The notes beneath the pieces are model-generated. The model was not told the DNA's origin, did not search any database, and saw only the letters and a program-made list of their open reading frames with translations. From assembly GCA_024679065.1 (NCBI GenBank), contig JAGIQG010000009.1:92132001-92196000 (forward strand): a stretch of DNA of 64,000 bases, given 5' to 3'. Below, piece by piece: positions 2,513 through 45,200 of the stretch. A program made the position numbers and the translations under genes. Source of the stretch: Sphyrna mokarran. Taxonomy: Eukaryota. The stretch's first letter is position 1. Every line of letters begins with the position of its first letter.

Positions 2513-4850
2513 CCTTCAAATCATTTATATATATTACAAACAGCAAAAGTCCAGCACTGACCCATGAGGAATGTCACTTGTCACAGCCCTCCATTCAGAA
2601 ATGCACCCTTCCACTATCACCCAGTCTTCTTTGACCGAGCCAGTTTTGTATCCACCTTGCCAATTCACCTCTGATCCCATGCAACTTTACCTTCTACTCC
2701 AACCTGCCATGAGACACTTTGTCAAAGGCCTTACTGAAGTCCATGTAACAATGTCCACTGCCCTACCCTCATCAATCATTTTTGTCACTTCTTCAAAAAA
2801 CTCAATCAAGTTAGTGAGACATGACCTCCCCTTCACAAAACCATGTTGCCTTGCACTATTATGTCCACTCATTTCCAAGTCGGAATAAGTAACGTCTCAA
2901 GGAATCCTGACCAATAATTTCCCTATCACTGGCACAAGGTTTACTAGCTATGATTAGCTGGACTATTCTTGCTATCCATCTTAAACAAAGAAACAACATC
3001 GGCTCTTCTCCTCTGGGATCACCCCTGTAGCCAATAAGGATAGAAAGATTTATCTCAAGGCCCCAGTAATTTCCTCCCTAGCCTCTCTCAGTATTCTGGG
3101 GTATGTCCCATCAGGCCCTGGGGATTTGTCTACCTTAATGTTTCTCAAAAACCCCAATATCTTCTCCTTTTTGATCTCAACATGACTCAAACTATCTACA
3201 CATTCTATCTCTGACTTATCATCCAACAAGTCCTTGTCTTTAGTGAATACTGACACAAAACACTCATTTAATACTTTGTCCATTTCCTCCATGCTCCATG
3301 CATAGATTCCCTCCATTGTCCTTGAGTGGGCCAATCTCTCCCTGGCTATGCTTTTGCTCTTTAATAGATGTATAAAAAGTCTTGGGATCTTCCTTAGTTC
3401 TGCTGGTCAATGCTTTTTCGTGACTCTTTTAGCCCTCCTTACTTTTTGCTTAAGTTTCTTTCTGCTTTCTTTGTATTCAACATGTGCTTTGTGTGTTCTT
3501 GCTTCCTAGTTTTGACGAATGCTTCCTTTTTCTCTTTTACTAAGCTCACAATATCTCTCATTATTCACAGTTCCCAAAAGTTGCTATACTTATCTTTCAT
3601 CCCGATAAGAATGTGCCAGTTCTGAATCCCTATCAACTTACACTTGAAAGCCTCCCACCTGCCAGATGCTGATTTGCTTTCAAACATCTGCCCCCAATCG
3701 ACATTCTTCAGTTCCTGCTTAATATTGTTGTAATTAGCCTTCCCCCGATTTAGCACCTTAACTTGAGGATTACACTTATCTTTATCCAGCAGTATCTTAA
3801 AACTTACTGAATTGTGATCACTGCTCCTAAGAACAAAGAACAAAGAACAAAACAGCACGGGAAACAGGCCCTTCGGCCCAACGAGCCCGCGCCGCCACCC
3901 CTATGTTCCCACCTCTACCTGCAATCCCTGTCCATGTTTATAGATCTATGGATTGAAAACCAAATTTGAACCAATTTAGGGAGAATTTGTTTTGCCAATT
4001 AGTCTAATAGCACATCTTTGGGATGTGGGATGAAACTGGAGCACCCGGAGAAAACCCATGCAAACACGGGGAGAATGCGCAAACTCCCACAGACACAGGC
4101 CCCAATCCATGTATCTGCACAGCACGGCGATAGTCACTGAGCTGTCGTGTTGCCCATCAAATGGTCCAGGTCAAGCGTACACTGACGACATGAAGCACTA
4201 GGATACTCTCGAAAAGAAAAATCCAAGAGCAGCCTTGTCATGACCCATCGCGTGTATGCCCCTCATTAGACAACAAGGTGGACCAAAGCACCTGTAGGAT
4301 AAAAACAATTACATCAATATCATCTATTTATACACTTCCCAGGGACTCCCAAGGCTCATGATCCCTATTTTAAATCAGTTTTCTATATCCCTCCATTCCC
4401 ATTCTGTTCATGTGCCCATCTAAGTATTTCTTAAATAACTCCAGAGTGCCTGCCTCCACCACTTTACTTGGCAGTGCATTCCATACTCTCACCACCCTCT
4501 GTGTGAAAAAACTCCTTCTAGCATCCAAATTATACCTTACCCCCCTCACCCTAAGCCTGTGACCCCTCATGCTATTCGAGTCCATTGCTGCTTCTACTGA
4601 AACATAAACCATCTGGCTGGGCTCTTTCCACAATACCAGGTCCAGTATGGCCTCTTCCCTTCTTGGACTATCTATGTACTGTTTCAAGAAGTCCTCCTGA
4701 ATGCTCCTTACAAAATCTGCCCCATCCAAGCCTTTAGCACGAAGTGATTCCCAGTCAATAAAGGGGAAGTTAAAATCTCCCACCACTATCACCCAGTTAA
4801 TTTTACATCTTGCCAAATTCTAGCTACATATCTGTTCCTCAATTCCTACC
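2513..4850 (-). mobile_element. Older CR1 LINE (APE and RT remnants), interrupted at 3829-4587
   Basis: Minus-strand ORFs with [24 protein letters not shown] and VVGDFNFP motifs. Confidence 0.85.
3829..4587 (-). mobile_element. Young CR1 3' fragment whose 3' UTR includes an embedded SINE
   Basis: ORF2 end RGHRLRVRGVRYNLD..FFTQRVV..YRKLI. Near-identical to 58160-58905. Flanked by ctgctcct (3821-3828) and ctgcttct (4588-4595), a candidate TSD. Confidence 0.85.
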
Positions 4851-12000: not shown

Positions 12001-15000
12001 GGATGCAGCTGAGCCATTGCAGCACATTTCTGTGGTTCTGGATTCACATGTAGACCTGACCAAGTAAATGACATTAGTGTATGAGTTGGGTTTTTTTCCC
12101 TGACAATCAACAACAGTTTCATGGTCATCAGTAAATTCTTAAATACAGAATTTTTTGAATTCAAATTCCACCATCTGCCATGACGGGATTCAAACCTGGG
12201 TCCCACAAACATTAGTTGAGTTTTTGGATTAATAGTCCAGTGATAATATCACTAGGCCATGTTCCTAACAGACACTCAATGTTCGGTTTTCAGAGATCAA
12301 GCTGGGAGAGTTCTAAATTCTGTCTTGGCATACACAGAAGCATAGAAAATAAATGAGACACTCCAACTAAATGCATGGATGAGGGATTGGTGTAGGGCAG
12401 AAGGCTTCATATTTATTGATCATTGGGAAGTCTTCAGGAGGGAGGGTCACCTATTCACGAGGGATAGGGAGCAGTTGACTGGGAGGGGAACACATATTTT
12501 AGCTGGGAGGTTAGCTGGAGTGTTTCAGAAATGTTTAAACTAATAGGGAGGGAGGGTGGGGAGACAGCGGGAACTGGGAGTGGGATAGAGAGGGATGATA
12601 GGGTAACACCAGAAGGTAGAAAGGAATATCCAAGAGCTGAGGGTCTTCAGTGCATGTGTTTTAATGCGAGGAGTGTGACTGGCAAAACAGATGAACTGAA
12701 GGCAATAATGTTCACGAGGAGTTTAGACGTGGTGGCGGTGACCGAGACGTGGTTGAAGGAGGGGCAAGACTGGCAATTGAATATTCCAGGGTATAAGTGT
12801 TTTAGGTGTGACAGAGTTGGTGTGAAGAGAGGCGGGGGAGTGGCTTTATTAGTTAAGGACAACATCATAGCAGTGCAGAGGGAGAGAGGTATGGATGATT
12901 TAGGAATTGAGTCTCTATGGGTGGAGTTGAGGAATAGGAAGGGAGTGGTTACTCTGTTGGGTGTTTACTACAGACCGCCCAACAGCCCGCAGGCTGCGGA
13001 AGAAGGGATATGCAGGGACATTTTAGATAAGTGTAGGAAAAATAGGGTGGTAGTGGTGGGAGATTTCAATTTTCCTGGAGTAGATTGGAGTGTGCCCAGG
13101 GCTGTAGGAGTGGATGGGGAGGAATTTGTACAGTGTGTTTTGGAAGGGTCCTTGGAGCAGTATGTGGATGGCCCGACTAGAGAGGGGGCTATACTGGATT
13201 TGGTTCTGGGGAATGAGCCAGGCCAGGTGGTTGACGTCGAGGTAGGAGAGCAGGTGTCAAATAGTGATCACAACTCTGTCTGCTTTAGGATATTAATGGA
13301 AAAGGACGAGACTGGCCCAAAAGGGAGGGTATTTAACTGGGGGAGGGCTAGATACGGCCAGATTAGGCAAGATCTTAAAGATACGGACTGGGATAAGCTT
13401 TTTGAGGGCAGGTCGACGAGGTACATGTGGGAGTCTTTCAAGGGAAAACTAAACTCTCTGCAGGAAAGATATGTGCCGGCAAGGAGGAAGGATGGGAAAG
13501 GTAGGATTAGAGAACCTTGGCTTACCAGGGAGATTGAGGACTTGATCAAGAAAAAGAGAGAGGCTTACATTAGATCTAGGCAACTAGGGACTGAGATAGC
13601 GCTGGAAGCTTATAGAGATTGTAGACGGGATCTTAAAAGGGGTATTAGAAAGGCAAAAAGGGGCCACGAGGTGGCTCTGGCAGGTAGGATTAAGGAAAAT
13701 CCAAAGGCATTTTACACCTATGTAAGGAGCAAAAGGATGGTTAGAGGCAAGATTGGACCTCTTAGGGACAGAGGAGGGGATCTATGCTTAGAGCCTGAGG
13801 GAATGGGGGAGATCCTGAATGAATACTTTGCGTCGGTATTCACGCAGGAGACTGGACAGATGTCTGTGCCTGATGTTGACAAAGTTGAGGATTGGTTGAG
13901 GGAAATAAGGATTACGAGGAAAGAGGTGTTGGGGCTGTTAGGCAGCTTAAAGACATATAAAGCTCCGGGGCCTGATGGCATTTACCCCAGGCTGCTAAGG
14001 GAGTTGAGGGAAGACTTGGCTGGGCCTCTGACGCAAATCTTTGTCTCTTCCTTGGACACAGGTGAGGTCCCAGAGGACTGGAGGATAGCAAACGTAGTAC
14101 CGTTTTTTAAAAAAGGTCAGAGGGATCACCCAGGGAACTATAGGCCGGTGAGCTTGACTTCAGTTATAGGTAAGCTAATGGAGAGGATCCTTAGGGACAG
14201 GATGTATGAGCATCTGGAGCGCTGCGATCTGATCAGGGATACGCAGCATGGCTTCGTCAAGGGGAAGTCTTGTCTTACAAATCTAGTGGAATTTTTTGAA
14301 GAAGTGACAAAAACAGTTGATGAAGGACAGGCTGTTGATGTCGTCTACATGGATTTCAGTAAGGCGTTTGACAAGGTTCCTCATGGTAGACTGATAGAGA
14401 AGGTGAAGGCGCATGGGATACAGGGCCGGGTATGTAGATGGGTCGAGAACTGGCTCGGGAGGAGGAGACAGAGGGTAGTAGTGGAAGGCTCTTTTTCCGA
14501 CTGGAAGCCTGTCACTAGTGGAGTGCCACAAGGCTCAGTACTAGGTCCTCTTCTATTTGTGGTCTACATAAACGACTTGGAAGTAGGGGTAGGTGGTGAG
14601 ATCAGCAAATTTGCTGATGACACCAAGATGCTTGGATTGGCGGGTACAGAAGAGCAGTGTCAGGCAATACAACAGGACATAGACAGGTTGGTAGATTGGG
14701 CAGATAGATGGCAAATGGAATTTAATCCGGAAAAATGCGAGGTGATGCATTTTGGCCGGAAAAATGTAGAAGAGAATTATAGGATAAAAGGTAAAACTAT
14801 ACGGAGCATAGAGACGCAGAGAGACTTGGGGGTGCAGGTTCACAAGTCTCTGAAGGTGTCCTCACAGGTGGAGAAGGTGACAAAGAAGGCGTATAGTATG
14901 TTAGCTTTCATAGAAAAGGGTATAGAATATAAGAGTAGGAGTTTGATGTTGCAGTTGTATACAACTTTGGTTAGGCCTCACTTGGAATACTGCGCCCAGT

Positions 15001-18000
15001 TCTGGTCTCCGTACTATCGGAAGGATGTGGAGTCCTTGGAGAGAGTGCAGAGGAGGTTTACCAGGATGCTGCCTGGTATGGAAGGACTGTCCTATGAGGA
15101 ACGATTAGATAGACTGGGGTTGTTTTCCCTTGAAAGACGTCGGCTTAGAGGGGATCTCATAGAGGTGTATAAGATTATAAGGGGTATAGATAGAGTAAAT
15201 GGAGGTAAACTTTTTCCACCTTTAGAAATGGATAGGACGAGAGGTCATGGCCATAGGGTGAGGGGGGCTATGTATAGGACGAATATTAGAGGGCAGTTTT
15301 TCACACAAAGGGTAGTGGGGGTGTGGAATGCACTGCCGAGTAAGGTGGTGGGAGCAGGCACGCTGGGGCTGTTTAAGGGTCTCTTGGACAGCCACATGAG
15401 CGGTATGCAGATAGAGGGATATATTAGGACTGTTTAACTACGGCTTTTTTCCACAGGTAATTCGGTCCATAATTTGAGCACGCATTCGGCAGGTGGTGCG
15501 GGTACAGCTCTTGGATGTTGATTCATGGGTTGCCTGGTACCTCATGTCGTATATGAGTGCTTTATGTGGACCATCTGAAGGGCACCATGACAGCTCAGAG
15601 ACTATCGATGTGGCTGTGCAGACACTTGGAATTGGGCCGGTGTCTGCGGGAGTTTGCGCGTTCTCCCCGTGGTTGCGTGGGTTTTCTCCGGGCACTCCGG
15701 TTTCCTCCCACAACCCAAAAATTCGCTCTTAGGCTGATTGGGTAACAAATTGTCCCTATGGTGAAAATTTTCCATATTAGGAAATGATAAATAAATGCTT
15801 AATAAAAAAAAAATAGGAGCAGGAGTGGGGCAATCAGCCCATCTAGCATGCTCTGCTTTCTGTTATGATCATCCAACTCAATATCCTCCACAAATGGAGA
15901 CATAGAATTATGGATTAAACACCACTCCTCACACCTCGTAACACATATATATTCAAAGTTGGTCACAAGCTATTTGTGAACAAGGAAGTGGCTTAATTAA
16001 GTGTGTAATCATATACCATTTTCCTTTATGGAATACTTTATTTCAGGTAACAAAGGGACAATGCTGGCAATTTACATTAAATAAATGGATTGTGGAAAGT
16101 ACACACAGACAGCCAGTGATACTGAGAAATTGAAAACAAACTGGCCTTTTCTCTCCTTGTTATCTACAGTTTTGCACTTTAGCTGAGATCTTGACTCTGA
16201 TTGGCACTCCCTCCATTCTCACCACCTGAAATTTTAAAACTTTCCCCCTCTACAGATATTGCCAGAACTTCTGAGCCTTTCCAGCATTTTGCTGTTTAGA
16301 TTTCTGCTTTGTTGCTTACTGCTGTAATGCCCGTCCCATTTAATTTACAAAAAAACTAATGATTTTGTCTTCATATCAAAGGATAAGTTTCCTTCTTAAA
16401 GGTGTACATCTCGGGCACTTTGAAGGAGATTGCATCTATTTATGATGCTTTCAGTATAGCTTCAAGACATTGAACACTAACAGGCTAATCGTATGTACAA
16501 TGAATGATTAAGTTTTACCTTTGTTTATTCATGAAAGAAGTGGGCTTATATCAACATTGCAATGAAGTTACTGTGAAAATCCTCTAATCGCCATACTCTG
16601 GCACTTGTTCAGGTATGATGTGGAGATGCCAGCATTGGACTGGAGTAAACACAGTAAGAAGTCTGACAACACCAGTTTAAATCCAACCGATTTATTTGAT
16701 AGTGAACTCACAAGCTTTTGAGCTTTCCCTCATCATCAGGTGACTGGAGAGTTCTCACCTCAGACAGAGCATATAACAGCACAAACAGTTTACAGATTAC
16801 TGATTAGAATACAAGTCTTTACACCTGACCTGCTATTCAAGTCTTAAAATGGCTAACAATGTGAGTGGAAGGAGCAGTGAGCACAGGTTAAAAAGATGTG
16901 TATTGTCTCCAGACAGTACAGTAAATGAGTTTTGATAGTAAGACATGCGGGATCATTGACATGGATAACATCATCACATATGAGAATACCATCCACCAGG
17001 AACATGGCACATACTCTTGCAACTTGGCCAACATTGTCTGCCTAATATGTTGCAAGAAAGAATGTCCCGAAGCATAGTACATTGGGGTGACCGTGCAGAC
17101 ACTATGACAATGAATGAATGAAAATTGCTCGACAATCACCAGGCAAGACTGTTCACTTCCTGTTGGCGAAAACTTCAGTGCTCACAGGCATTTGGCCTCC
17201 GACCTTCGGGTAAGCATTCTCCAAGGCGGCTTTCATGACACACGACAGCGCAGAGTTGCTGAGCAGAGACTGATAGCCAAGTTCCACACACGTGAGGATG
17301 TTCTCAACAGAGATCTTGGGTTCATTTCGCACTATCGGTAACCCCCATGACTTGCCTGGGTTTGCAAAACCTCACTGACTGTTCTGTCTGGAGACAATAC
17401 ACATCTCTCTAACCTGGGCTTAATGCTCCTTCCACACACATTGTTAGCCACTTTAAGACTTGAATAGCAGGTCAGATGTAAAGATTCGCATTCTAACCAG
17501 TAATCTGTAAACAGTCTGTGCTGTTATATACTCTGTCTGAGGTCAGTACTCTCCAGTCACCTGACGAAGAGGGAAACCTCGAAAACTTGTGAGTTTACTA
17601 TCAAATAAATCGGTTGGGCTAAACCTGGTGTTGTCAGACTTAGGTATACTGAGGGAGAATTTAGCACGACCAGTTGTCCCAACCAAGGCACCTTTCAGAC
17701 TATGGGAGGAAAATCCACACAGGTAAGGGAAAACGTGCAGACTCCCCACAGATGGTGACCCAACCAGGAATTAAACCCAGGCTCTTGGACTGTGAGGCAA
17801 CTATATAACTAACCACTATACTACTGTGCAACTGCATGTTAAGATATGCTTCTGCTGGGGCAGAAAGTGGACTGAGCTCATTCTCGTATTAAAGCAGAGA
17901 ATGAGCTCAGAAATCTATTAATAGATTTCTGATTAACAGTAACTTAAAGAGTTGGTGAGATGCTAGATGTCTAAGGAATTGAAGTTTCCGATCTAGCTAT

Positions 18001-24000: not shown

Positions 24001-27000
24001 CAGGATGACTTTCAGATTGGAGGAGGAAAGTGAAGCACCAGCAGGAAACCCACACAGACATGGGCAGACTCTATATACCAAGCTGGAATTTGAACCCACC
24101 CCCTGGCACTGTGGGCAGCATTGCTAACATAGTACCACTGTGCACTTCTGCACTCCCATTGGAGTGAATCCTTTATCTTACAATGTTTCTCCGTAGTTTT
24201 CCTCTGAAGATGGATCACTTCACACTTATCCCCATTTGTGCTCATCTTTATTTGAATCCTATTCTAGGTAAACTGGACCTGGGGACGGTGTTGTCTTGCG
24301 TAAGACTTTGTGTACCTATTACAGCTTTAGTAACCATCGAAAGACAATGCACATTGAGTGGAAGAGAAATTCTCACATTTGGTGTGAATAAATGCAATAA
24401 ATATTTAAGCATCCATCGACTGAATTGCCGTTTCAGGTATCCATTATATACAAGGACTGTTTGGCTGTGAGGTGAATGGTAGCAAAGCGAGTGGCGGGAT
24501 TTTGAAGCTTGCTTTCGATGGGAGATATGCTTTCAGCTTTGATATAAACACCTTGGTTTGGACTGTGCACGATCCAGTTGCTAAGGAATTAAAAGTGAAG
24601 TGGGATAAAGAGGAAACCATGAACCGTTACTTCAAGAGCCTAATAATAAATGATTGTGTGGCGTTGTGGCAGTTATACTATGCTGTGGGAAACACATTTC
24701 TCAGCAGAAAAGGTAAGTTGAGAACAGCACCATGGTCAGTTACAAGCTGGCTTTTGGAATACAATAGTTGAGGCAATGATTACAAAAACTCATTTGTAAT
24801 GAATGAAGTCATGTTTGAGCTATATAGAACTTTGGTGAGGATGCCACAAGAGTACTGTGTTAGTTCTGGACAGTACATTACAGGAAGGATGTGCTTGCAC
24901 TGGAGGGCATGCAGACGAGATTCACAAGGATGCTGCCTGGGATGGAACATTTAGGTTGTGAAGAGAGGCTGGATAGGCTTGGGTTGTTTTGGGTTATTGG
25001 AGCAGAGAAACTGAGCTGTGACCTGATTGAGGTGTACAAGATTATGAGTGGCTAAGGAGCAGCTATTCTCCTTAGCTGAACAGTAATTCATGAGAGGACA
25101 CAACTTCAAGATGAGGGATAGAAGATTTAATGGGAAGGTGAGGCCAGGGGGTTGTGAGAGTCTGGAATGTACTGCCTGGGAGATTGGGAAAGGTGAGTTT
25201 CTGTACATCCTTTAGAAAATATCTGGATGAGCACATGACATGGTGCAACATTCAAGGCTATGGACCAAGTTATGGTAAATGGGACTAGATGGGAGGTCAG
25301 GTGCTTCACATGAATCAATGCACATTTGATGGGCTGATGTGGCCTCTTCTGCACCCTGTGATTCTATGATTCAATTTCATTGGATCCGTTGGAGACATTC
25401 TCTGTGTTCTTTTAACAGATGGCTGATTCGATGTTGCCTATTTCACATTGGAAGCAAAAAGCTAAGCTTCCCGCTTGATTTCCTAGTGCAATGTTCGGTT
25501 TGCACGTTACTTGAAATTAATTCTCAGTCTCTCATCCAGTTATTCCGCAGGTTTCAGTCACTGCCAGGGAAGGGCCTGGTTGGTTCCTACAATGCGCTGT
25601 GCGTGGATTTCACCCGCAGTCCATTAATGTGACTTGGCTGAAGAATGGATCACAAGTCCCTGAGACCAAATCTACCGGCTTGCTGCCCAATGAAGATGGA
25701 ACCTACCAACTGACTACAACTCTCCAGTTTGACCCGTACGATGGGAAGCAGTATGGCTGTCACATTGAACACATCAGCTTGCCGGATGGGAAGACTGTTC
25801 TTTGGGGTGAGGACATATTTCCTGACATTGTAGTCCAGCATGTGCGGACCCAACCGTTTTCTTTTCGATAAATCACATTATTTCTTTGTCATACAAGCTT
25901 TATCATCAAATAGACAAATCAGGGAGCTGTCCAGTCCCCCAAAATTTTATTGCTTAACGATTTGATGGGGGGGTGGTGGAAGAAACATCGAGTTAGGTAT
26001 GTTCGAGAGCTGAGTTCCTTCTTGGGCAAGATAGTTCTGCAGATTTCATAGGCAGCATAGACTTCACCCTTCATAGTGAGGCCCATGGTTAGCCTGTGGA
26101 ACACTGCACACACCACATGTATTGGTATCCTACTGTCTGCCTCGGACATCTTTTGGTTCTTGGGAACATTATTCTCCACTGTCTGCAATTGGCTGTGAAA
26201 GTAGCTGAAAGGCCCTGCACTCCAAGCCACAATGCTTTGAATCATACTATAGCATTGACCGTCTCATAAGATCATAAGATACAGGAACAGAATTAGGCTG
26301 TTCGGCACATCCCATCTGCTCTGCCTTTCAATCCATGGCTAATAGAGTATTCAATCCCATTCTCTTGCCTTTTGCCTGTAACTTTCATCCTCTCACCATT
26401 TATCTCCATCCCAAATACACTCATTGACAAGTTGCTCATTTTGCTGCATTTTACACACTTCCAGCTTTGTTTCCACCTGTCTGCTTATCAGCTAACTTCA
26501 AAACTGCTGAGAGCTGTCAAGACTTCAAAGTTTCTGCCCAAATTTGTGAACATTTGTTAATACAGATTCATAGAATAGAATCATAGAATTCTATATTGCA
26601 GGAAGTGGCTATTTGATCCAATGAGCCTGCACTGGAAACAATCCCACCCAATCCTTATCCCTGTAACCCCAATATTTACCACGTTAAACCCACTGGCAGT
26701 AAGGGGCAACCCTGGCACTGTGAAGCAGCAGTACCAACCATTGTGTCACTGTGCCGCCGATTGGCAGTGAGCAGGTCACACCTAATGTTATATCATAGCA
26801 CATGGGGATGTTTAGCATGATGTTGAGTGTAAGTTCAGTATTGAACAAAAACAAAGACTGAGCACCCTCCTACATATATTCTTCCCTCTCTTTGTCTTCC
26901 ATGATGTTACTGGGTAACTCATAGTGTGTATGGGGTGTCAGGAAGTGCTATTACCTTTGGTGGGGGAACATGTTGCGTCCTTTCATGGATATTTGTCCAT

Positions 27001-41318: not shown

Positions 41319-42223
41319 TTACACACTGTGTTTAACATCTTTTTTTTTAATAATTAGAGTTACTGGATATTTAAACAGGTTCTTTAATACCTCTCTGAAT
41401 TTAGTCTGGGACACTGCATAAATAATGGTATTTGAGCAGGAACTTAAATGCTGCAGCATATATCCTGTTTGCTCCATAATGGTGAAAGGATTACTATAGT
41501 CTGTGTGTAAGTATTGAATTTCCATAATCTGTACACAGATATAATGAACAAAAGTTACCGACCATAATAGTATAAAGCTGCCAGATATGGCCAACAGTAA
41601 AACAATGGATTTTTTTCGGTTTTCCATTTCCGGGTCGTTATCACTGTTCCGCAGACTTCTTCTAACCTTGCTTGTGAGCACAATGTGCCTGATGGTCAAG
41701 CCATTGAGTATCAGAATCAAGAGGAAGGGAATAAAAGGCATTAGAACAATGTCAACCCACAAGAATGTAACCCATATAGGTTCTGTATAGAGGCTTAACT
41801 TTACATTGCAGAACCATAATACATTGTTGATTATTATGTGAGGTTCAAATGTAAAATAAATTGGGATGTTTTCCAGAATACTCAGCCCACATATTATCGC
41901 TACAACCACTCCCGCAGTTTTTTCAGTGCAATATTGTGTTCTTAATTTTTGCCAACAAATGGCAACAAATCGGTCAAAGGTGAAAGCTACGGTTAGCCAG
42001 ACGGAACATTCAATAGAAGCAAAAATTAAGAAGAAATTCAGGCTGCAGACAGGAGTGATGTCCAGGAAGGAATCTGGAAAATAGATTTCATTCATCTCGT
42101 ATAGGATCACGTCAACAATCAGGACAAGTAGATCTGTCGCTGCCATGGAAACCAAGTAAACAGTGATGCATTTGGAGAGGCCACATTTCCCCCGGGAAAG
42201 GATCACAATGGTTAAAAGGTTAG
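41319..42223 (-). CDS. GPR139/142-like GPCR exon 2 (TM1 end to TM7 and C-tail)
   Basis: Lies within ORF 41319..42326. The true start is the acceptor (minus strand ...gcaatttcag|CT AAC CTT) at 42223. The ORF-track N-terminus MHEEKVQ… is intronic. Confidence 0.92.
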
Positions 42224-45200
42224 CTGAAATTGCAGAAGCAGTGAAATAAATCAGGAAAGAAGATTTGAAAAAAGAAATTGCACATGATAAACTGCAATAA
42301 TTAGTCTGGACTTTCTCTTCATGCAAAACATTTACTTTCTGCCTAGTTAAAAGGAGAAATTCTGAAGGTACCTGACTATTTAGCCATTCACAAAATATTT
42401 AGTGCTGGAATCACCATGGAAAATGTCTAATAAGGTGTTCTGATATTGAAATTTCCAGCTCTCATTTACTATCTTTTCCATTCAGACAACTTTAGGCAAA
42501 TCAATGAATTCACATTTTATTGGAGTATCTTCATAAAATTAATAACTTGTTTACAAATCTCAAGCTCTATTTGTTAATATTTCAGAAATAACACTTCTAG
42601 AGCCAGAAACCTTTTCAGCACAAGGAGATATTTTAGTCCATCAAGTTCATGTTATTCCCTGAAGTACAATCCAGTCAATCCCCAAAGGCTTGAAGGATCA
42701 GTTCTAAGCTGAGTCTGTCTAAATTTCCTTCAAAGGAAAAGTGCCCATTCTATATATTAGTCTTATAAAACTTCTCTGAACTGATTTTGTTTACACTTTT
42801 TCTTAAAGAAGGTGACCAATTTTGTACATAATACTCCAAATGTTGTCTCACAAGGAACTGGAAATGCAGCTTGAGGACCTTCATCTCATTAGAGAGAATG
42901 AGGACTTAATTGTTAGGAGCTATCGGCAAGTGGTCACAACAGGGCAACGGGAAGAAGGCACGTGGGTAACTATTAGGAAGGGGAAACCTCAGGTGATGGA
43001 GAGCATGCTGGTGGATGTCCCCCTTCATAATAAGTACTCCTGCCTGAGTACTACTGGGGGGAGACAGCTCATCCGAGGGAAGCAGCGGTGGCCAGCTCTC
43101 TAGAGCTGAGCCGTACGTCAAAAAACTAAGAAAAAGAGAGAAGCAAGGCAGTACTAATAGGGGACTCTATAGTGAGGGGTTCAGACAGGCGTTTTTGTGG
43201 ACGCAGACGAGAGTCGCGGATGGTGGTTTGTCTCCCTGGAGCTGGGATCCGAGATGTCTCTGGACACCTCCCTGACATCCTGAAAGGGGAGGGTGAGGAA
43301 CCTGAAGTTGTAGTTCATATAGGTACTGCAGACATAGGCAGGAAGAGGGAGGCAGTCATGAATAGGGATTATAGGAAACTGGGTAGGAAGCTGAGGAAGA
43401 GGAAAGTGAAGGTAGTTATCTCAGGATTGCTGCCTGCGCCTCAGGAAAATGACAGCAGGAATGGAATGAGATGGAGGGTGAATGCATGGCTGAGGGACTG
43501 GAGCAGGGGGCAGAGATTCCGGATCCTGGATCATTGGGACCTCTTTAGGGGCAGGTGTGACCTGTACAGTAAGGATGGGTGGCACTTGAATCCGAGGGGG
43601 ACTAATATCTTGGCGGGAATATTGGCTAGGGCTACTGGGGGGACTTTAAACGAGAAAGGTTGGGGGGAGGAAATATTGATGAGACTGAGAACAAGGAGGT
43701 TAGTTCCCAGGTAGGGAAGGACTGTAGACAGAATGAGGGAGGTTAGAGGGGTGGTAGAAAAGGGAAATATCCTGACTGAAGTGCTGAGGTGTGTCTATTT
43801 TAACACCAGGAGTGTAGTAAATAAGGTAGATGAGCTTCGGGCATGGATTGCTGCTTGGGAATGTGATGTGGTGGCCATTACAGGGACTTGGTTGTCTCAG
43901 GGACAGGACTGGGTACTTCAGGTGCCGGGATTCAGGTGCTTCAGGAGGGACAGGGTTGAGGGCAAAAGATGTGGTGGTGTGGCACTGTTGATCGGGGACA
44001 GTGTCATGGCTGCAGAGAAGGTGGATGACGTGGAGGGAATGTCTACGGAGTCTCTGTGGGTGGAAGTTAGGAACAGCAAAGGGTTGATAACTTTGCTGGG
44101 TATATTCTATAGGCCGCCCAGTAGTGACAGGGAAGTTGAGATGCAGATAAGGAAACGGATCCTAGAAAGATGTAGAAATAACAGAGTTGTCATGATGGGA
44201 GATTTCAATTTCCCAAACATCGACTGGAATATCCCAAAGGTAAGGGGTTTGGATGGGGAAGAGTTTGTTAGGTGTGTTCAGGAAGGTTTCCTGACACAGT
44301 ATGTGGACAAGCCTACAAGAGGAGAGGCTATACTTGATCTGGTGCTGGCTAATGAGCCGGGACAGGTGTTGGATCTCTCGGTAGGAGAGCATCTTGGAGA
44401 TTGAGATCATAATTCTATCTCCTTCATGATAGCAATGGAAAGAGATAGGATCAGGCAGGATAGGAAGGTGTTTGTCTGGATTAAGGGGAAATATGAAGAC
44501 ATCAGGCAGGTAATTGGATGAATAAACTGGAAGGAGGTGTTCTTGGAGAAAAGCACAGAAGGAAGGTGGTGGATATTCAAGGAATATTGGTCTGGAGCTC
44601 TGCACGACAACGTTCCGAGGAGACAAGGAGGTTTTGGTAGGACGCAGGAACCATGGTGCACGAAGGTTGTGGTGAACCTAGTCAGGAAGAAAAGAAAGGT
44701 GTATAAAAGGTTCAGAGAGCTAGGATATGTTAGGGATCTTGAGGAGTATAAGGCTTGTAGGAAAGAGCTTAAAAAGGAAATTAGGAGAGCCAGAAGGGGT
44801 CATGAGAAGGCCTTGGTGGGTAAGATTCAGGAGAATCCCAAGGCCTTCTACAAATATGTGAAAAGTAAAAGGATGAGAAGAGAAGGGATAGGACCTATAA
44901 AAGGTGAAGGGGGAAAAGTCTGTGTGAATCCGGAAGAAATGGCAGAGGTGCTTAACGAGTACTTTGCCTCGGTATTCACGGTGGAAAGTGAACTGGGAGA
45001 TTGCACTGCAGGTTTGAGGCATACGGAAAAGATTGAGTATGTGGATGTTAGGAAAGAGGATGTGTTAGACCTGTTAAATTCTATCAAGATAGACAAGTCG
45101 CCGGGACCGGATGGGATGTACCCCAGGTTATTGTGGGAGGTGAGGGAAGTGGTTGCAGAGCCCCTGGCAATGATCTTTGCGTCGTCCATGGAAACGGGAG

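Follow-up and report, generated by a model that had tools for sequence, protein, structure and literature searches.

A candidate -1 ribosomal frameshift signal between the two ORFs of CR1 LINEs with an esterase ORF1

Introduction

The 64,000-nucleotide stretch of DNA analysed here (the window) holds a LINE copy whose second open reading frame (ORF2) overlaps the end of the first (ORF1) in the -1 frame, which raises the question of how such elements translate ORF2. To our knowledge, ORF2 translation of two-ORF LINEs has been settled for a few elements only, by reinitiation. A preliminary description of this DNA had proposed a programmed -1 frameshift on the heptamer U UUA AAC, aided by a G-quadruplex, that would yield an ORF1p-ORF2p fusion. 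A 2026 survey presents CR1-group elements as the dominant retrotransposons in most vertebrates, and the esterase as the vertebrate CR1/L2 ORF1 type (PMC13343379). In the esterase-type elements compared here the signal is present and conserved, ORF2 lies in the -1 frame and several families lack an AUG for it. From this comparison of sequences, these elements are likely to translate ORF2 through programmed -1 frameshifting, so that its product would be part of an ORF1p-ORF2p fusion.

Collection of junctions

Junctions were gathered from the genome (2.77 Gb) through DNA-, Pfam- and protein-level searches, and from metagenome contigs; ORF1 ends were placed with a profile from which the final three residues had been omitted. 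Sixteen single-copy representatives were compared, nine from this genome, six of what we take to be a bird type and one from a distant lineage, frame-intact copies being picked where possible; the lineages are related and the counts given below are not independent draws. Eight of 34 metagenome loci entered the representatives or the text, and the other 26 were short, deleted or broken at the junction, or without a C-terminal match. A random sample of 200 kb of genomic DNA yielded a single junction, and this route was given up. Genome-contig matches L235-L238 were left out, having neither an LN end nor an adjacent ORF2. Neither a relative nor a motif match was found in viral contigs. One shark-type CR1 ORF1 (P0018) is labelled in a public database as a Pseudomonas aeruginosa SGNH hydrolase, which is likely a contamination.

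The junctions in the window

The window is vertebrate DNA with many LINE fragments, and the ORF1 proteins have named homologues from rays, skates and sharks (protein search). The element in question belongs to a young family (family 1) whose copies are 99% identical, and the window copy shows 99% identity to the full-length ones over 12348-15818. Its features are as follows.

12348..15813, + strand: young CR1 LINE family (family 1), 5'-truncated copy with an A-tail at its end; 5' junction and tail located
12349..12543, + strand: ORF1 remnant, last 64 codons and TAA stop; tail of the SGNH-esterase domain, start codon absent
12531..12533, + strand: ATG read in frame with ORF2; arises through a synonymous Lys codon and is not fixed within family 1
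12534..12540, + strand: slippery heptamer T TTA AAC in ORF1 register, ORF1 stop next; found in 16/16 representatives
12534..15437, + strand: ORF2 from the slip site, 967 codons, intact; 35-codon linker, APE endonuclease, reverse transcriptase
12546..12561, + strand: G-tract 5 nt past the heptamer; predicted three-tier G-quadruplex in family 1

The layout described earlier for this junction proved exact. ORF1 ends in AAA TGT TTA AAC TAA (12529-12543), the heptamer T TTA AAC (12534-12540) sits in ORF1 register with the stop directly 3', a 5-nt spacer, TAATA (12541-12545), leads to G3-A-G3-A-G3-T-G4 (12546-12561), and ORF2, open over 12468-15437, is the -1 frame relative to ORF1. The site has the X XXY YYZ form expected of -1 frameshifting, in register with the upstream ORF. 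No other such in-register heptamer occurs among the 300 codons that make up ORF1 in full-length family-1 copies, and ORF2 has two in 967 codons. The highest G4Hunter score within the element is that of 12544-12563, reached by 2 of 3103 windows; the sole in-register ORF1 heptamer and the top window thus make the junction signal more than chance.

An APE endonuclease followed by a reverse transcriptase is encoded by ORF2 (Pfam), and ORF1 is of the SGNH-esterase type, recognized by Pfam in family 2 (see below) and through alignment with these proteins in family 1. The CR1 label rests on this domain order and on a 3' end type that we take to be that of CR1. Because only 64 ORF1 codons are left, the window copy can make neither ORF1p nor the fusion, and the frameshift question is one about family 1 and not about this copy.

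Other observations concern the element and its surroundings. At 15784-15813, about 85 nt of the 3' end, present in three full-length copies, are missing and the terminal tail is kept; upstream, the family-1 3' UTR contains a stretch (15660-15720) that presumably resembles the V-SINE core domain. The family-1 ORF1 esterase (L011; window 12349-12543) is without the catalytic Ser (GDGM) and His (DREQL), and similar losses were found in P0031, P0014 and a sister subfamily; yet family 1 is young and abundant. Elsewhere, the window carries MHC class I alpha-2 and C1-set exons (24424-25871, Pfam), with a second G3-N-G3-N-G3-N-G3 motif between MHC class I exons at 24894, and an intronless frame of a rhodopsin-family GPCR on the minus strand (41319-42398, Pfam).

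A second junction is provided by another CR1 family.

43130..43651, + strand: second, older CR1 family (family 2), ORF1 esterase domain (Pfam Lipase_GDSL_2)
43645..43670, + strand: family-2 junction with heptamer, mutated stop (GAG), 6-nt spacer and G-tract

It too was found as had been reported, with the heptamer at 43645-43651, the 6-nt spacer, a G-rich tract and 33 open codons. The stop of this copy is mutated to GAG; of the 50 copies of its cluster that bear the heptamer, 47 have TAG there. A 2-nt deletion has moved ORF2 of this copy out of the -1 frame, which its relatives keep.

Conservation of the slip site

T TTA AAC plus a stop closes ORF1 in all 16 lineage representatives, from the shark-like host, the bird type and the lineage with tubeworm relatives, and TTTAAAC lies at most 6 nt from the predicted ORF1 end in 98 of the 105 unique copies given by family and protein searches. 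In 16/16 the base before TTA is T, the codon that it closes encoding one of six amino acids (Cys, Thr, Ser, Gly, Ala or Tyr). Among the 16, different stops follow the heptamer, with 12 TAG, 2 TAA and 2 TGA, and ten representatives that were compared share 25-82% amino-acid identity over the last 80 ORF1 residues. The slip site is thus conserved at the synonymous, nucleotide level, which is one mark of -1 frameshifting, whereas an invariant codon was found in only one of 27 other conserved control columns of ORF1 and endonuclease. In the same way, the slip-site Leu is TTA in 12/12 cases, whereas TTA accounts for 2 of the 41 codons found at four control Leu columns. Free synonymous variation of the Leu-Asn codons, which had been named beforehand as the outcome that would speak against frameshifting, was not seen, and the heptamer in every representative favours a frameshift.

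The protein ends agree with this picture over a wider range. Relatives of the distant lineage (L201) are named from the tubeworm Ridgeia piscesae (72-76% identity), and 74 of 86 tubeworm-type proteins with a short tail end in S/F/Y/C/L-L-N, their tails being longer than in sharks. LN or IN is terminal in 33 of 48 homologues from the shark search, and ORF1 homologues end in xLN although the preceding tails differ in length. The residue before LN is E, K, Q, M or W in only 1 of 33 cases, a weak indication, left out of the evidence since positions -6, -7 and -9 are equally low.

Reading frame of ORF2 and use of AUG

ORF2 occupies the -1 frame and stays open from the slip site onward, with the exception of the GGLN subfamily (15/74). 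The endonuclease is in -1 phase in 30/30 family-1 and 41/50 family-2/3 copies, and in only 6/13 copies of the old RALN family. Over the linker of 31-58 codons, the -1 frame has 0 stops in 602 codons, compared with 43 and 61 for the two alternative frames, a count that is partly circular because the representatives were chosen frame-intact. Upstream of the heptamer, the -1 frame is shut by a stop within 8 codons in 10/16 representatives.

Five of the 13 evaluable lineages (F2, F3, F2c, GGLN and QGALN) have no Met before the catalytic Glu, and F3 is a young family with intact ORFs. L201 has none before the catalytic Asn, and 7 of the 13 have a Met there. The ATG at 12531 is present in 29 of the 30 closest family-1 copies. 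Among the 100 of 1,940 genome-wide matches listed and counted by hand, the position is ATG in 18 of 58 family-1 copies (38 GTG, 2 other) and in 0 of 42 copies of the sister subfamily, and it tracks a synonymous AAG/AAA change. Conservation of this ATG had also been set beforehand as a test; since it is not fixed among the matches listed, the result favours a frameshift, and an AUG kept near the ORF1 stop of source elements, as expected under reinitiation, was not found.

In bird-type elements an in-frame ATG is frequent, either two codons past the slip or before the endonuclease; the former was seen in 3 of 7 junctions (L202, L203 and L211) and also in L205. With an in-frame ATG so near the slip site, these elements could use reinitiation. 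Moreover, a missing AUG alone does not prove frameshifting, because the human L1 ORF2 start is described as accepting any sense codon (PMC1965478).

In one F3 copy (L308, G000:C1104:27583300-27585800), an extra G in the ORF1 tail fuses ORF1 and ORF2 into one frame of 1224 codons. Such a single-frame fusion was found in 1 of 150 matches and is probably a copying slip.

The G-tract and the predicted quadruplex

Downstream of the slip site, a conserved G-tract was observed and no conserved stem-loop (15 lineages, z -1.9 to +1.6). G is present at +8 in 16/16 and at +11 in 14/15 representatives, at +11 to +15 in 13-15/15 and at +18 to +20 in 13-14/15; from +23 to +35 its conservation is at most 10/15. 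In the window these conserved positions are 12548, 12551-12555 and 12558-12560, +13 being A in the window copy. Both +8 and +11 fall on the third base of codons whose amino acids vary, which points to an RNA signal. The pattern of the tract occurs in exact form at 4,086 places in the genome versus 2 for a reversed control, and all 30 matches fetched out of the 4,086 were CR1 junctions.

In 14/15 lineages the tract scores above the 95th percentile of the G4Hunter values within the same element. In family 1, where a G-quadruplex is predicted, four G3 tracts with short loops lie at the distance expected of a stimulator, 5-8 nt past the site, in 30/30 close copies, and only there. The sister subfamily, with 79% nucleotide identity to family 1, reads GG-A-G7-T-G4 and has no perfect motif. 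The three-tier motif, found in 1 of 15 lineages, is not a common property of the lineages in which the slip site is kept; the two-tier pattern occurs in 7/15 (background 3-19% of windows), and both are absent from the bird-type and distant lineages among the 15 examined. With quadruplexes enabled, ViennaRNA placed one at the junction in 6/15 lineages. On this comparison, the predicted quadruplex is a family-1 elaboration of an older G-tract. As the stimulator within family 1 it is plausible, with a chance close to even. Of the earlier claim of a quadruplex stimulator, the predicted three-tier motif is thus confirmed in family 1, but a general role is not supported.

F2, F3, GGLN and QGALN (L312, L314, L315 and L316) have in common, in the 5' UTR some 100-200 nt before the ATG of ORF1, a TATA-like box, a 10-bp hairpin and a C-rich tract, together with a branch-point-like CTAAC and splice-donor-like sites; a search of Rfam with these 5' UTRs gave no match and nothing relevant. 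Long-range pairing of the G-tract with the C-rich tract was considered and rejected, as other windows pair equally well and the cognate family is not preferred.

The GGLN subfamily

The GGLN subfamily has a star-like tree with about 1.3% divergence. In-frame spacing was observed in 15/74 copies, one G being missing in 42 and two in 13, and 4 being longer, which leaves 59/74 out of the -1 frame. The form one G short (8-G) has gapless matches in contigs of two other independent runs; an assembly error was rejected on this ground. An A interrupts the G-run in 10/15 in-frame versus 3/42 one-short copies (p 1.5e-5). In parallel, among the 100 of 2,458 GGLN/QGALN matches listed and counted by hand, 42/52 with interrupted runs, 7/28 with pure runs and 11/20 others are in phase (interrupted versus pure, Fisher p 2e-6). 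The conserved GGG at +18 aligns in the in-frame GGLN form only.

Since out-of-frame copies track pure G-runs, they probably arose through shrinkage of pure G9-10 runs, after or during copying. Alternatively, the source element itself may have been out of frame; the star-like GGLN trees fit 8-G copies with or without a shared source. At the GGLN junctions (L111-L140 and L269-L307), G-to-A changes are clustered in the G-run, far over the 1.3% background and often two per run, which may reflect misalignment of the reverse transcriptase.

Alternative explanations

ORF2 might be reached through termination-reinitiation, AUG-dependent where an AUG is near and otherwise AUG-independent as in L1, the heptamer and G-tract then being a termination/reinitiation signal that is slippery by look only. 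This route is described for L1 (PMC1965478) and SART1 (PMC3708506), and it would suit the bird-type ATG just past the stop as well as the 59/74 GGLN copies out of frame. Nevertheless, it leaves unexplained the -1 frame of ORF2 across lineages, the T before TTA in 16/16 and an ATG 12531 present in just 18/58 copies among the matches listed, and the loss of GGLN phase tracks pure G-runs, pointing to shrinkage after or during copying; we regard it as quite unlikely. A sub-case of the frameshift explanation, in which the shift is real and a G-quadruplex stimulates it in all families, is unlikely too as far as the quadruplex is concerned. The position of the G-tract is conserved, ViennaRNA places a quadruplex at 6/15 junctions and family 1 resembles a synthetic construct described in PMC3919603, but a three-tier motif in 1/15 lineages, a two-tier one in 7/15 against a 3-19% background, the lack of either in bird-type and distant lineages and the imperfect motif of the sister subfamily speak against it.

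That Leu-Asn is kept for protein reasons, with its codons an accident of ancestry or composition, is very improbable. One control column is indeed invariant too (the catalytic Asn, AAT in 10/10), but the control-column comparison largely refutes this explanation; moreover, family-1 ORF2 uses TTA for 12/85 Leu and AAC for 9/25 Asn, the lineages share 25-82% of amino acids, and LN keeps its terminal position behind tails of differing length. Splicing of the element RNA, at which sequences resembling a donor and a branch point, present in the 5' UTRs of several families, could hint, has the smallest probability of all, as there is no conserved acceptor at the junction, where the stop is TAA or TGA in 4/16 and the region purine-rich.

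Proposed mechanism

The fusion by -1 frameshifting is supported by the comparison (heptamer in 16/16, -1 frame, ATG 12531 not fixed), and the part of the original proposal that did not stand is the G-quadruplex as general stimulator. In the proposed mechanism, the majority of ribosomes would terminate directly past the Asn codon, releasing ORF1p. A small share, a few per cent, would pause, owing to the next-codon stop and the G-tract at the mRNA entry site or channel, and the Leu and Asn tRNAs would slip in tandem one base back on U UUA AAC. In family 1 the transframe reading would be ...QKCLN followed by LIGREGG.... Shifted ribosomes would pass the 31-58-codon linker into the endonuclease and reverse transcriptase, giving a minority fusion of about 1270 residues. 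The G-tract would fold as a three-tier G-quadruplex in family 1 and could act as a weaker quadruplex or a protein-binding site in other families.

Taken at its widest, the proposal is of an ancient -1 signal shared from sharks and birds to tubeworm-like invertebrates, whose stimulator would be a position-fixed G-tract and not a stem-loop or pseudoknot, with a natural G-quadruplex in family 1 and a G-tract-protein site or weak quadruplex elsewhere, and hence of a gag-pol-like fusion in a major animal LINE class; this we advance tentatively, as possible but somewhat short of an even chance. If true, the frameshift would tether the CR1 reverse transcriptase to ORF1p, fix the ORF1p:ORF2p ratio and change the annotation of CR1 elements, in that a start codon of ORF2 would not be there to locate. 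Family 1 offers a natural system in which G-quadruplex-stimulated -1 frameshifting can readily be tested, with the sister subfamily, devoid of a perfect motif, as a built-in control.

Comparison with known systems

The literature search found no frameshift proposal for CR1; its scope did not extend to the original papers of 1997-2006 (e.g. Haas 1997 on chicken CR1, turtle CR1), which may mention the overlap. The words "frameshift", "overlap" and "slippery" occur 0 times in the main text of the 2026 vertebrate CR1-group survey (PMC13343379), and the excerpts of PMC3905857, PMC3708506 and PMC4255032 make no mention of a frameshift for CR1. A -1 frameshift is not a new idea for LINEs, since Dictyostelium TRE5-A and TRE3-A, which are APE-type non-LTR elements like CR1, are stated in a review to need one for ORF2 (APE and reverse transcriptase). 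They belong to another clade with another ORF1, and the review's description, on which this comparison relies, includes no G-tract (PMC5911963). L1 and SART1 share with CR1 a bicistronic LINE RNA and a low ORF2 output; unlike the proposed CR1 fusion, their ORF2p is described as separate, and their ORFs as non-overlapping or UAAUG-linked (PMC1965478, PMC3708506).

Retroviral and LTR gag-pol as well as coronavirus 1a/1b resemble CR1 in the in-register X XXY YYZ heptamer, the downstream element at 5-11 nt and a pol-like -1 ORF without AUG. UUUAAAC is the coronavirus slip site, and Rous sarcoma virus has a stop directly past its own. CR1 differs from them as a non-LTR host element, and in that no pseudoknot or stem-loop was found at its junction. 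In addition, Pfam detected no protease domain in ORF1 or ORF2, so that the fusion would remain uncleaved save by a protease of the host.

For the families without a perfect quadruplex, the arterivirus -1/-2 frameshift may serve as a model by analogy. It is described as protein-stimulated, without RNA structure, through a short conserved single-stranded motif 11 nt past the slip site (PMC7939443), and the core G-run of CR1 likewise begins at +11. The arterivirus motif is C-rich and bound by PCBP and nsp1beta, whereas the CR1 tract is G-rich and its binding factor putative. For family 1, the closest counterpart is synthetic. In the constructs described by Yu et al., (G3U)4 placed 5-8 nt past UUUAAAC gave up to about 7% frameshifting in vitro (PMC3919603). 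Natural stimulation of frameshifting by a G-quadruplex was "not currently known" according to a 2016 review (PMC5009743), and a 2026 paper reports a natural case, the rG4-promoted shift of HDAC1, which differs from CR1 in its +1 direction and its location at codon repeats (PMC12809536). The construct of Yu et al. equals family 1 in heptamer, 5-nt spacer and three-tier motif with 1-nt loops, the former being a reporter and the latter a natural sequence (PMC3919603).
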